Source: Escherichia coli (lineage in GTDB: Bacteria; Pseudomonadota; Gammaproteobacteria; Enterobacterales; Enterobacteriaceae). From it: DNA of 64,000 bases. Positions 1,693 to 53,183 of the stretch are shown here, piece after piece. The translations under genes were made by a program, and so were the position numbers. The notes beneath the pieces are model-generated. The model was not told the origin of the DNA and ran no database searches. It saw only the letters and a program-made list of their open reading frames with translations. The DNA lies in assembly GCF_044324785.1 (NCBI RefSeq), contig NZ_CP172127.1; one strand, written 5' to 3'. Each line of letters opens with the position of its first letter. The stretch's first letter is position 1.

Positions 1693-1797
1693 GCCTGATG
1701 CGCTATGCTTATAAGGCCTACATAGTCCCTGCAATATATTGAATTAGCAAGATTTTGTAGGCCGGATAAGGCGTTCACGCCGCATCCGGCAGTAATA
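1693..1797. repeat. REP/BIME cluster (two REP-like palindromic units) in torZ-cmoB convergent spacer
   Basis: gcctgatgcgc...ataaggcctac and gccggataaggcgttcacgccgcatccggca match the E. coli REP consensus. Confidence 0.7.
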
Positions 1798-12022: not shown

Positions 12023-12808
12023 TTAGCTGGCTTGCTTTTTCATCATACTGATAATAAATAACAGTGCCGCACATAGCACCACCGACGGACCCGCCGGCGT
12101 ATCGTAAAATGCGGAAAAGGTTAAACCGCCAGTTACTGCCACCATTCCCACCAAAACAGCGACACCGGCCATCTGTTCCGGCGTGCGGGCAAAGCGACGC
12201 GCAGTAGCTGCAGGAATAATTAGCAACGAAGTAATAATCAACGCGCCGACAAATTTCATCGCTACACCAATCGTCAATGCCGTCACCAGCATCAACAACA
12301 ATTTCACGCGCTGTAATTTCACTCCATCAACAAACGCCAGATCCGGGCTAATCGTCATCGACAGCAAATTGCGCCATTGCCAGAACAAAATCGCCACCAC
12401 GATGACCACGCCAATTGCAATAGAGATGAGATCTTCTGGCGTCACTGCCAGCAAATCACCGAACAGGTAAGCCATCAAATCAACACGAATATTAGACATC
12501 AGACTAACGACAACCAGGCCCAGCGACAGGGCACTGTGCGCCATAATCCCTAATAACGTGTCGATCGCCAGCTGTGGACGCTTCTCCAGCCATACCAGAC
12601 CGCCCGCCAGCAGCAGCGTAACTGCAATCACCGCATAGAATGGATTCACGTCCAGCAACAAACCAAACGCGACGCCAAGTAATGAGGCATGAGCCAGCGT
12701 ATCACCGAAATAAGACATACGACGCCAGACCACAAACGAACCCAGCGGACCCGCGGCACAGGCGAGCATGATCCCGGCTAACCAACCGGGAAATAATAAT
12801 TCAATCAT
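12023..12808 (-). CDS. znuB: Zinc ABC transporter permease
   Basis: 261-aa membrane protein; 4-nt overlap with znuC. Confidence 0.93.
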
Positions 12809-34690: not shown

Positions 34691-34777
34691 AACATTTAAG
34701 CTGATGACCACCGCGCTTTTTATTGACCATTTTGCACGCAAACTGGAAAACCTGGCGTCGTCATCTATTCTTAAAGG

Positions 34778-34880
34778 GCAAGGCAACTAAGCCTGCATTA
34801 ATGCCAACTTTTAGCGCACGGCTCTCTCCCAAGAGCCATTTCCCTGGACCGAATACAGGAATCGTGTTCGGTCTCTTTTT
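34778..34880 (+). ncRNA. sdsR: SdsR (RyeB) sigma-S-dependent small RNA
   Basis: Sequence gcaaggcaactaagcctgcattaatgcc...gaccgaatacagg-aatcg-tgttcggtc-TCTTTTT recognised as SdsR; sigma-S-like -10 CTATTCTTAA just upstream; terminator hairpin plus U-run at 3' end. Confidence 0.85.
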
Positions 34881-35014
34881 ATCTGTTAAAAGCCAGAAGC
34901 ATTCCCTTCGCTGACTTTATAGTCAACCATAACACACACTCTACTGTCTGAGTCCAGCGTTTTTTAACATTCTTGTTAAGATTATGTGATCTTTAGCGCG
35001 GGAGGAAAATATTG

Positions 35015-49723: not shown

Positions 49724-50392
49724 TCCTTCCTCAATCTTGAGTAACCCCGTCGTTGAAGGGTTACTCAATTCATCCTGATTATACGCACTGCCATGGTGCA
49801 ACTGCTTCAAATTAAAACTCTGGTCTGACTTCAAATAATTATCATATTATTTATTTGCGTAACGGGATATCAGAAAAAGATATTTAGCCCATTAATTTAT
49901 TAGGATGTTTACATCGGATTTGTGATTAAGTGTGGTATTATTTATTAGCGAAACGTTTCTCTCTTGATTTTTTTGCGCATTCATCAATTTTTCTTATTTT
50001 AAATTTACAATACCTTTGGCGATTGACTTCTCTTTGGGGTGATTGATAGCCGTTAACTGACTGTTTTATGAGAAAAAGTGATATAACTTTTTATTCATTG
50101 CATAGCAGAAAATGTGATATTGCACGCACTATGTAATAACTTCTCCCATTGGCCTGGAACAACTGAACTTATTGAACTATGTTAGAAAATACGTCAGTTT
50201 AAGTATCTGCCTGAACTGGCAAGGTTAAGCACAATGATATATCGGCGCGTATTCCGTTGCATAAGTGTGCAAAAAAAGTGGAAGACGTATCGAGATTTGT
50301 GCGTCTGATCGAGACATGTTTAAAAATGGCTTGCCATAATTAACGTTGTATGTGATAACAGATTTCGGGTTAAACGAGGTACAGTTCTGTTT

Positions 50393-50536
50393 ATGTGTGG
50401 CATTTTCAGTAAAGAAGTCCTGAGTAAACACGTTGACGTTGAATACCGCTTCTCTGCCGAGCCTTATATTGGTGCCTCATGCAGTAATGTGTCAGTTTTA
50501 TCTATGTTATGCCTGCGGGCGAAGAAAACAATCTAA
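50393..50536 (+). CDS. yobF: Small protein YobF (47 aa)
   Basis: ATG..TAA encoding [47 protein letters not shown], 12 nt upstream of cspC; below ORF-track cutoff. Confidence 0.8.
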
Positions 50537-50548
50537 GGAATTTTTCAA

Positions 50549-50758
50549 ATGGCAAAGATTAAAGGTCAGGTTAAGTGGTTCAACGAGTCTAAAGGTTTTG
50601 GCTTCATTACTCCGGCTGATGGCAGCAAAGACGTGTTCGTACACTTCTCTGCTATCCAGGGTAATGGTTTCAAAACTCTGGCTGAAGGTCAGAACGTTGA
50701 GTTCGAAATTCAGGACGGTCAGAAAGGTCCGGCAGCTGTTAACGTAACAGCTATCTGA
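50549..50758 (+). CDS. cspC: Cold-shock-domain protein CspC
   Basis: 69-aa ORF; RNP motifs KGFGFI and VFVHF. Confidence 0.96.
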
Positions 50759-50803
50759 TCGAATCCACTGATCTGAAGTGTGAATACGCTTCAATCTCGC
50801 TAT

Positions 50804-50830
50804 AAAGCCTCGTCGAATGCGAGGCTTTTT
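50804..50830 (+). terminator. Rho-independent terminator after cspC
   Basis: aaagcctcg-tcgaat-gcgaggcttt hairpin followed by T-run. Confidence 0.8.
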
Positions 50831-50923
50831 ACTTTGCTTTCTCTTCGCTCCAGTCGTTCGGATATTTGCCCGCCGCGTGATTCGCGTTACACTTGCGGCC
50901 TTTAGTATCCTGCCGGAGTTGTC

Positions 50924-51733
50924 ATGTCGTTTTCCTGTCCACTTTGCCATCAGCCTCTTTCGCGTGAAAAAAACAGCTATATCTGTCCCCAGCGACATCA
51001 GTTTGATATGGCGAAAGAAGGGTATGTCAATCTGCTGCCCGTTCAGCATAAACGGTCTCGTGATCCGGGCGACAGCGCGGAAATGATGCAAGCACGCCGC
51101 GCATTCTTAGATGCCGGACATTATCAGCCGCTGCGTGATGCAATTGTCGCTCAACTGCGGGAACGGCTTGATGAAAAGGCCACAGCGGTGCTGGATATTG
51201 GCTGTGGTGAAGGGTATTACACACACGCATTTGCCGATGCGCTGCCCGAAATCACCACGTTTGGCCTGGATGTCTCGAAGGTAGCGATAAAAGCGGCGGC
51301 GAAACGCTATCCGCAGGTCACTTTTTGTGTTGCTTCCAGCCACCGTTTGCCGTTTTCCGATACCAGTATGGACGCCATAATACGTATTTACGCGCCGTGT
51401 AAAGCAGAAGAATTAGCGCGAGTAGTGAAGCCTGGCGGTTGGGTCATTACTGCCACGCCGGGACCGCGACATTTGATGGAGCTGAAGGGGCTGATTTACA
51501 ATGAAGTACATCTTCATGCACCACATGCAGAACAACTGGAAGGTTTTACATTACAGCAGAGTGGTGAGTTGTGTTATCCGATGCGTCTTCGCGGTGACGA
51601 AGCCGTCGCATTATTGCAGATGACGCCGTTTGCCTGGCGTGCGAAGTCAGAAGTCTGGCAAACACTGGCAGCAAAAGAAGTGTTCGACTGCCAGACGGAC
51701 TTTAATATTCACCTCTGGCAGCGTTCTTATTAA
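50924..51733 (+). CDS. rlmA: 23S rRNA m1G745 methyltransferase
   Basis: 269-aa ORF; N-terminal Cys4 zinc motif (CPLCH...CPQRH), SAM motif LDIGCGEG. Confidence 0.92.
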
Positions 51734-52296
51734 CCGTGGAAGTGCGTCCAGAGGATCTGGACGCCGATGCCGATCAGTACCAGCCCACCGAGAATTTCCG
51801 CTTTTTTCCCAATAATTGAGCCGATAAAGCGACCAACCATCATCCCTAATGTCGACATAATCAAGGTTGCACAACCAATGGCCAATGCGGTCGCGATAAT
51901 GTTGACCTGCAGAAAGGCGAGACCAACACCCACAGCCATGGCATCCAGGCTGGTGGCAATCGCGGTGGTTACCAGTAGCCAGAAACCGTGTCGACGGCGC
52001 GGTTCTTGATCTTCATCATCTGCGCCACGAAAACCCTCAATAATCATTCGCCCGCCGAGGAATATCAGCAGCACAAACGCAATCCAGTGGTTCCATTCAA
52101 GGACAAACCGGCTGGCTAACATGCCCATTCCCCAGCCGATCAGCGGCGTCAGGGTTTCGACGGCACCAAAAATAAGGCCGGTTCGCAACGCTTCAGAAAA
52201 TTTCGGTTTATGGAGGGTGGCACCTTTACCGATTGATGCAGCAAATGCATCCATCGACATACCAAACGCAAGAAGAACAGTAGCAGTGATATTCAT
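51730..52296 (-). CDS. mntP: Manganese efflux pump MntP
   Basis: ORF 51730..52350 trimmed to [18 protein letters not shown]... (188 aa); convergent 4-nt overlap with rlmA. Confidence 0.9.
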
Positions 52297-52329
52297 GACA
52301 ACGTCCTGACCGGGGTATCCATAAAACAC

Positions 52330-52521
52330 ATCATCGCCCCCAGCAAACATGCATACATGAACGACAAACCGCGATGGTTTTCGCGTTCATGCAGGCATAG
52401 CGATTGATGTGCATATGGTCTCGCCTGACTGAAAGTGTTCAGTCCGTACGTGCCACGTTTTGCAACGAGTATGTTGACACGTACATTTCCGGAATCTGGA
52501 AATCGGCTACTCCCCAAATGA
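52330..52521 (-). promoter_or_regulatory. yybP-ykoY family Mn2+ riboswitch in mntP 5' leader
   Basis: Long leader between mntP start and promoter; minus-strand sequence contains the conserved GGGGAGUAG element; established that E. coli mntP has this riboswitch. Confidence 0.6.
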
Positions 52522-52724
52522 GGGCGCAACCTTAACATATTTTGAGAATATAAAACAACTGTTGGAATATATTATTTCATTGCTTTATTGATAACGATTT
52601 TCATTTAGATTTATATATCAATGAAACGTTAAAATAAATAACAAATAAGGGAAGGGGTAATATAGCCTAAGCTATGTCTGATTATTAAAAATACACTAAA
52701 CATAGCTTTGGCTAAATTGATAAC

Positions 52725-53183
52725 TTATTGAGTTGAAACGAGAAGCTTATAAATTTTTTCCAGATCGTCGATATTTCGAACGCGGATTAACAGCCGACGC
52801 TGTTCTAATTGCATCACCAACACGCCATCTTCCGACAAGTTCATCGCTTTGATTCGGCTATATTCAATCCAGACATTGGCGAAGAAAAAACCTTTTTGTT
52901 TAAAGATGATCTTCGGAACGCGGATCCAGAATATATAAAAACCCATCAGAGCCAGTGCACTTAATAACCATGTTGTTATTAGCGCGCCATGATTCGTGAC
53001 GTTGTTATAGATAAGAATGACAATCAATCCGACGAAGATAACGCTATCGATGCGACCACGCCGGAGCAAAGGAATTGCCAGCAGAGTGGGGCCGTTACGG
53101 CGGGGCATGATGAACTGATCGTAGATCGCGAAGGCCAGGAGTGCGGCGATGAAAAGAATCAGTACCAGGTCCGTGATTGTCAT
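52725..53183 (-). CDS. yobD: UPF0266 inner membrane protein YobD
   Basis: 152-aa ORF; GGAGG SD upstream. Confidence 0.85.

Follow-up and report, generated by a model that had tools for sequence, protein, structure and literature searches.

The Escherichia coli mntP control region: a published manganese riboswitch that scores just below the Rfam gathering threshold

Introduction

What does the DNA in front of mntP, the gene of a Mn2+ exporter, contain, and is there a manganese riboswitch in it when an Rfam scan with default thresholds reports none? We addressed this question in a 64-kb stretch of E. coli DNA (referred to as the window), where an initial annotation made from the sequence alone had proposed a Mn2+ riboswitch in the mntP leader and a Fur-like box further upstream.

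We are very confident that this DNA is the entire control region of E. coli mntP, as already characterised. Its anatomy does not depart from the published mntP system, and every feature of sequence or structure that we tested was present, with the sole exception of a score above the Rfam cut-off. The riboswitch, also described under the gene name yebN (Dambach 2015; Price 2015; Kalita 2022 and 2024; Stephen 2025), and the control of its promoter by MntR, Fur, and H-NS are known and published. The mntP leader is among the best characterised metal riboswitches, so that there is little biology to gain from it. Our analysis is based on sequence identity, on the fold and covariation of the aptamer, on a conserved alternative helix, and on conserved protein boxes, while the Mn2+ response, the action of Rho, the control by Fur, MntR, and H-NS, and the crystal structure are taken from the papers.

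The yobD-mntP gap is nearly identical to that of K-12

The minus strand carries manZ, yobD, and mntP in this order, and rlmA on the plus strand is convergent with mntP. According to the list of open reading frames and to the RefSeq records of K-12 and an identical strain, the regulated gene mntP covers 51730-52296 (minus strand) and encodes 188 aa beginning with MNITAT. Since mntP runs from 52296 to 51730 and the 3′ end of yobD lies at 52725 on the same strand, the non-coding gap between the two genes extends from 52297 to 52724 and comprises the 428 bp given in the initial annotation, whose other sequence items were likewise all found at their positions. At the opposite end of mntP, its 3′ end (minus strand) overlaps that of rlmA (plus strand) by 4 bp (51730-51733), and therefore there is no space for an intergenic terminator.

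The 601 bases around the mntP leader show 100% identity to several complete E. coli genomes and are found in 5422 of 5426. Compared to K-12 MG1655, eight of the 428 positions in the gap differ (99% identity), one of which is located in the P4 loop of the aptamer. Within the 225-nt leader, five nucleotides are substituted relative to K-12: this P4 loop position, three positions in a hairpin of the expression platform, and one between the Shine-Dalgarno sequence and the AUG. L1, L3, and P1.1 are all untouched.

The mntP leader begins with a four-way-junction aptamer

The yybP-ykoY Mn2+ aptamer occupies 52412-52521 on the minus strand (nt +1 to +110) and is organised as a four-way junction. Helix P1.1 is formed by 52514-52520 and 52412-52418. 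It is followed by the 5′ strand of L1, GGGGAGUAG, with its extruded adenosine (52507-52515, minus strand), and this strand corresponds to the GGGGAGTAG element that had been attributed to yybP-ykoY in the initial annotation. P1.2 pairs 52505-52507 with 52423-52425, P2 spans 52485-52503, P3.1-L3-P3.2 spans 52446-52484 with L3 at 52468-52474, and P4 spans 52427-52444 (all minus strand). The partner of the L1 strand is the 3′ strand GGCGAGACC (52417-52425, minus strand), which follows the pattern G(C/A)(G/A)AGACC; both GGGGAGUAG and GGCGAGACC are invariant or nearly invariant in the seed alignment. The L3 motif, CAACAUAC (52469-52476, minus strand), is of the mntP type and carries the Mn2+-contacting adenosine A48, which is the first L3 nucleotide, as published. 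Folding of nt 1-117 alone yielded the four-way junction with P1.1, P1.2, P2, P3.1-L3-P3.2, and P4 as the minimum-free-energy structure (−37.5 kcal/mol, z = −3.3). The aptamer lies in the 5′ UTR of the Mn2+ exporter gene, and its P1.1 can pair alternatively with the expression platform.

Homologues were collected by scanning genome contigs for GGGGAGTAG-N20-50-TCAACATAC, which gave 120 loci from Proteobacteria, cyanobacteria, Firmicutes, and others. A covariance model, R1, was built on the E. coli structure from 22 of these loci, the window sequence being included in the seed. R1 has a single match in the 64 kb, at 52408-52523 on the minus strand (109 bits, E = 7e-27), and yielded 99 matches in the first 99 of the loci. 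In the resulting 100-sequence alignment, 92.8% of the cells are in standard pairs, compared to 30–42% when the 3′ partners are slid, and 29 of the 34 pairs change on both sides. The covariation score of 0.676 compares with 0.05–0.12 for the slid versions and was reached by none of 500 shuffles. This alignment was fitted to R1, and both L1 and L3 were demanded by the search pattern, so that the conservation of L3 among the homologues is given by construction; the covariation signal is carried by the helices, which the pattern did not demand.

Identity to K-12, the fold, covariation among 100 homologues, and the literature thus support the initial proposal of a Mn2+ riboswitch. The proximal mntP leader is the K-12 mntP yybP-ykoY riboswitch itself, with the four-way junction of the mntP type and not the three-way junction of alx. 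The K-12 mntP aptamer has been crystallised (PDB 4Y1M; Price 2015) and is Mn-responsive. The K-12 leader confers Mn-dependent expression on a translational reporter, and it is from this K-12 leader, which differs at 5 of 225 nt, that the Mn response is known.

The Rfam gathering score narrowly excludes the riboswitch

A scan of the whole window with Rfam 15 at gathering thresholds gave no match to a manganese riboswitch (yybP-ykoY). With E-value reporting on the 601 bases around the leader, the same family, RF00080, matches 52427-52523 on the minus strand with 41.9 bits (E = 6e-10), which is 3.1 bits short of its gathering score of 45 bits, and this shortfall is why the default scan stays silent. 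Scanning with the Rfam yybP-ykoY model, the check suggested along with the initial proposal, is therefore positive by E-value and blank by gathering threshold. The score is statistically strong and misses an operational cut-off, and this does not refute the riboswitch. The RF00080 alignment is good over L1, P2, P3 with L3, and P4. It deletes most of the long hairpin loop at the end of the model, which itself has no pairing for P1.1. Of 13 relatives with the same architecture, 11 pass the gathering score, C. werkmanii only barely with 45.4; the sequences of E. albertii and E. cloacae fall below it like that of E. coli.

The consequences are visible in public annotation. Among 30 complete RefSeq E. 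coli genomes sampled to be spread, not one carries a riboswitch feature over the mntP leader, the place being blank in 26 and assigned to a hypothetical protein in four, while annotation of the btuB cobalamin riboswitch does occur in this collection. The gap probably stems from the RF00080 score, which at 41.9 stays below the gathering score of 45. The gathering score thereby narrowly excludes a riboswitch that has been validated both experimentally and crystallographically, which leaves the RefSeq leader blank or, in some strains, called a hypothetical protein, and scans at default thresholds will continue to report the mntP riboswitch as absent.

Elsewhere in the window, matches above the gathering score comprise the overlapping antisense sRNA pair SraC/RyeA (34740-34884, minus strand) and SdsR/RyeB (34781-34880, plus strand), a cspA-type leader match that spans yobF-cspC (50373-50833, plus strand), and ES036 (1714-1755, minus strand).

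Published numbering places the transcription start just 5′ of P1.1

The transcription start was placed from the numbering used in the literature, where A11 denotes the ligand-sensitive adenosine of L1, A48 opens L3, and transcripts of ∼124 nt contain the whole aptamer, which ends at about nt 110 once the 14-nt polymerase footprint is subtracted. Only with +1 at 52521 do all three fit, which gives a 5′ UTR of 225 nt (52297-52521, minus strand). One paper quotes a UTR of 229 nt, corresponding to a start at 52525. Both positions are just 5′ of P1.1, with 52521 one base before this helix, and the start implied by the published numbering is thus not downstream of the aptamer, which would have spoken against the initial proposal.

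Upstream of the start, a putative core promoter is located at 52529-52558 (minus strand), with TTGTTT as −35 box (52553-52558), a spacer of 18 bp, and TGtTAAGGT as extended −10 box (52529-52537). Escherichia, Citrobacter, and Enterobacter show hardly any variation in the block 52521-52558; a simple promoter scan did not list the mntP core promoter. We infer from the hexamers a plausible extended −10 promoter, from which transcription would start at about 52521.

The small open reading frames over the leader are unlikely to be genes

An open reading frame of 81 codons (52293-52538, minus strand) from the mechanical ORF list covers the leader and had been called most likely spurious. The ATG of this frame falls within the −10 region, before the transcription start, and the frame overlaps the structured aptamer. 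In E. albertii, a deletion of 13 nt shifts the frame (94 aa, frameshifted), and in Citrobacter and Enterobacter it stops after 51, 33, 32, or 25 codons. The start position and the changes of frame and length among species bear out that the ORF is not a gene. An in-frame N-terminal extension of mntP was rejected as coding as well.

Several shorter frames are present in the same stretch. The 3′ strand of P1.1 contains an AUG (+108 to +110) that begins an upstream ORF of 27 codons (52332-52414) and that Citrobacter and Enterobacter lack. This ORF is lengthened to 40 aa in O157 and O145 strains (L132:517-639; Z1504 of O157:H7) by a 1-nt insertion in the loop of the platform hairpin, and the longer version ends at a UGA that overlaps the mntP AUG.

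Could a small protein be encoded here, by the 81-aa ORF or by a shorter one upstream of mntP that ends at the UGA overlapping the mntP AUG? The 81-aa frame is open in E. coli, and some O157 and O145 genomes carry a PGAP annotation of a 40-aa hypothetical protein at this place. Against this, the 81-aa start codon is upstream of the transcription start, the frame and length vary among strains and species (81, 94, 51, 33, 32, and 25 aa, with the O157 ORF arising from the 1-nt insertion), and conservation tracks RNA pairing rather than codons. We therefore regard a coding function as extremely improbable, and the 40-aa ORF of O157 and O145 is an artefact of an RNA-constrained sequence.

An alternative helix in the expression platform competes with P1.1

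The expression platform extends from 52297 to 52411 (minus strand) and contains the Shine-Dalgarno sequence AGGA (52304-52307) in front of the start codon (52294-52296). When the full leader is folded without constraints, a long alternative helix replaces P1.1: the strand +185 to +203 (52319-52337) pairs with +104 to +122 (52400-52418) and captures the 3′ strand of P1.1 (minus strand), while the GGGG of L1, released in this way, pairs with CCCC (+207 to +210). In an alignment of 14 Enterobacterales leaders made with MAFFT and fitted to no structure, 84% of the cells of this helix are paired, compared to 33–54% when slid, and nine pairs change on both sides; the CCAUA/UAUGG part gives no covariation signal because it never changed on both sides. 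The position of the helix agrees with the published switching point, as co-transcriptional probing has shown that, in the absence of Mn, L1 and P1.1 are disrupted once the transcript reaches ∼205 nt.

Two further elements of the platform were noted. At ∼52352-52400 (minus strand), Escherichia and Citrobacter have an extra hairpin of ∼50 nt that is absent from Enterobacter leaders and that holds three of the five substitutions relative to the K-12 leader as well as a weak terminator-like stem. As a terminator, this site (52370-52385) was rejected: its stem has five pairs, K-12 carries substitutions in the 3′ arm and the tail, and the hairpin is missing from Enterobacter.

On the basis of these structures and the literature, the switch is best described as follows. 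The first 110 nt fold into the four-way-junction aptamer, and P1.1 is locked by Mn2+ bound between L1 and L3. Without Mn2+, the strand +185 to +203 invades and captures the 3′ half of P1.1; with Mn2+, the invasion is blocked, and the leader would then adopt a translation-competent fold from which mntP is translated, with partial relief of the termination by Rho in the leader and the first part of the coding region. Published data show that deletion of +1 to +19 abolishes the Mn response, that translational induction of mntP by Mn requires the native polymerase speed, and that, as long as the switch is off, Rho stops transcription in the leader and at the beginning of the coding region. At the ribosome-binding site itself, enforcing the aptamer fold in thermodynamic folding did not expose the Shine-Dalgarno sequence more (unpaired probability 0.21 vs. 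0.28), and published in vitro probing likewise showed no clear Mn-dependent change there.

The leader might instead act chiefly as a Rho-dependent transcription attenuator, with a secondary effect of Mn on translation. Bicyclomycin raises mntP ∼20-fold, Rho terminates in vitro in the UTR and early coding region with partial suppression by Mn (both published), and in W3110 RNA-seq data a feature then annotated between yobD and mntP (Y75_RS09590) has ∼2.5–3 times the signal of mntP. The same bicyclomycin paper, however, attributes termination by Rho to the poor translation in the off state, and translational fusions respond to Mn. We thus consider a predominantly transcriptional switch improbable and favour the translational switch, to which Rho adds a second layer; the two layers are coupled and not exclusive.

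Two palindromes upstream of the promoter resemble the MntR box of mntH

The initial annotation had mentioned MntR and Fur control of mntP. The Fur-like box was found, while two MntR boxes outside the interval that it covered (52297-52620) had been overlooked. As operator criterion we used the mntH-type inverted repeat AAACATAGC-N4-GCTATGTTT. Box 1, distal to the promoter, reads CAATTTAGCCAAAGCTATGTTT (52698-52719, −177 to −198), and the proximal box 2 reads AGACATAGCTTAGGCTATATTA (52658-52679, −137 to −158); both are palindromes and are given as read on the minus strand. They share the palindromic core TAGC-N4-GCTAT, which has four matches in the window compared to 0.33 expected, three of the four falling in these two boxes, and which is also the core of the K-12 mntH box AAACATAGCAAAGGCTATGTTT, as taken from the K-12 sequence. 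Both boxes are conserved across Escherichia, Citrobacter, and Enterobacter. Judged by their sequence, the two palindromes are MntR sites. Weak matches to miRNA families at 52648-52729 were discarded, as they are far below their gathering scores and reflect the inverted repeat of the two MntR palindromes.

A review that cites Dambach 2015 describes binding of MntR and Mn-loaded Fur to the mntP promoter, which relieves repression by H-NS. The promoter would accordingly, per the literature, be silenced by H-NS and activated by upstream binding of Mn2+-loaded MntR and Fur.

The Fur-like box is a probable site of Fur action

The Fur-like box GATAACGATTTTCATTTAG covers 52590-52608 (−69 to −87) and is overlapped by a second register at 52584-52602. 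It contains most of TGATAACGATTTTCATT, the plus-strand sequence at 52589-52605 to which the initial annotation had pointed. Scored against the 19-bp Fur consensus GATAATGATAATCATTATC, the box matches 14 of 19 positions, which is the joint best value in the 64 kb (four sites reach 14), and the second register, 6 bp away at 52584, matches 13 of 19. In the 7-1-7 form, which was scored as well, 12 of 14 specified positions match, again a joint-best value for the window. When the intergenic region was dinucleotide-shuffled, the score of the box was equalled in ∼4% of cases for the 19-mer and ∼1% for the 7-1-7 form. Conservation provides stronger evidence: across eight sequences from Escherichia, Citrobacter, and Enterobacter, 52589-52613 (TAAATCtAAATGAaAATCGTTaTCA) forms a conserved island in diverged DNA, and the box of Enterobacter sp. 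BIGb0383, TGATAATCGTTATCA, is nearer to the consensus. The second-best Fur-like sequence of the window lies far from mntP at 12044-12068, with TGATAATAAATAACA at 12049 and 14 of 19 matches at 12044.

Published data connect Fur with this promoter. In the Fur pan-regulon data, deletion of fur lowers mntP expression by 1.9–3.6 log2 units (∼4- to 12-fold) in eight strains, with no significant change in MG1655. The W3110 ChIP-exo peak at 1907085-1907097 maps to 52601-52613 of the window and overlaps the box. The peak attributed to mntP lies inside yobD in BL21, W, 042, and CFT073 (+148 to +176, ∼53008-53034). The Crooks peak maps to ∼52736-52748, and that of KO11FL is placed there too by its spacing from the yobD peak. 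A Fur peak reported for MG1655 in 2014 falls in the mntP leader when mapped via an inferred offset of 1976 bp between genome versions, and the mapping of the Sakai peak depends on the record version used by the authors. In sum, only the W3110 ChIP-exo peak overlaps the box, and the others lie 130 to 430 bp upstream or in the leader. Inside yobD, the stretch ∼53008-53036 (+148 to +176) carries published Fur ChIP-exo peaks in eight E. coli strains, and the DNA there is moderately Fur-like (12 of 19 at 53013, GATAAGAATGACAATCAATC).

These positions leave room for a second explanation, namely that the box is a chance match in AT-rich promoter DNA and that Fur acts indirectly or via other sites, inside yobD or near the yobD stop codon. 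The shuffles that reach 14 of 19 (∼4%) and the peaks inside yobD (BL21, W, 042, CFT073) or at ∼52736-52748 (Crooks, and KO11FL by spacing) would fit this. Yet conservation of the box stands out sharply from its variable flanks in three genera, and the box approaches the consensus more closely in Enterobacter sp. BIGb0383, has two overlapping registers 6 bp apart as in Fur arrays, and is overlapped by the W3110 peak. A chance match therefore appears unlikely. The resemblance to a Fur box noted at the outset is borne out by the joint-best score, the conserved island, the W3110 peak, and the fall of mntP in fur mutants; the box is plausible and probably functional, and 52590-52608 is a good candidate for the operative Fur site, a candidate because other strains have their ChIP-exo peaks at other positions of yobD-mntP.

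Between MntR box 2 and the Fur box lies another conserved island of 17 bp, TTATTTATTTTAACGTT (52625-52641, minus strand, −104 to −120), present in Escherichia, Citrobacter, and Enterobacter. It is conceivable but very doubtful that it serves as the site of a further, undescribed factor or as an H-NS nucleation site displaced by MntR and Fur. If true, the scattered Fur ChIP-exo positions across yobD-mntP would represent an extended Fur anti-silencing array and not one box.

Comparison with known systems

The closest counterpart is E. coli K-12 mntP, which is the same locus and the same element, with a leader that is 99% identical and an aptamer that is the same but for one base in the P4 loop. 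The Mn2+/pH riboswitch of alx (ygjT) belongs to the same family and organism and likewise acts on translation, again of a Mn exporter gene. In contrast to the mntP element of the window, which has P2, the mntP-type L3 CAACAUAC, and no intrinsic terminator in P4, alx is described in the literature as lacking P2 (three-way junction), with a different L3, an intrinsic terminator in P4, and a response to alkaline pH.

The crystallised switches of Lactococcus lactis yoaB and Xanthomonas oryzae likewise have a four-way junction, a metal core formed by L1 and L3, and P1.1 as switch helix, and a Xanthomonas homologue (L104) aligns to R1 with 99 bits. The L. lactis switch controls an intrinsic terminator, whereas in the mntP platform a long helix precedes the ribosome-binding site and the transcriptional layer is provided by Rho.

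At the level of the promoter, the K-12 mntH gene has the same two types of boxes, AAACATAGCAAAGGCTATGTTT for MntR and TGATAATCATTCTC for Fur. The mntH boxes overlap the promoter and repress, whereas the mntP boxes are located upstream of the −35 box (−69 to −198), where the proteins activate, reportedly by displacing H-NS. At ftnA, Fur sites upstream of the promoter are likewise said to raise expression by countering H-NS. The Fur-like box of mntP may be likened to the anti-silencing sites of ftnA, by analogy with a different gene.
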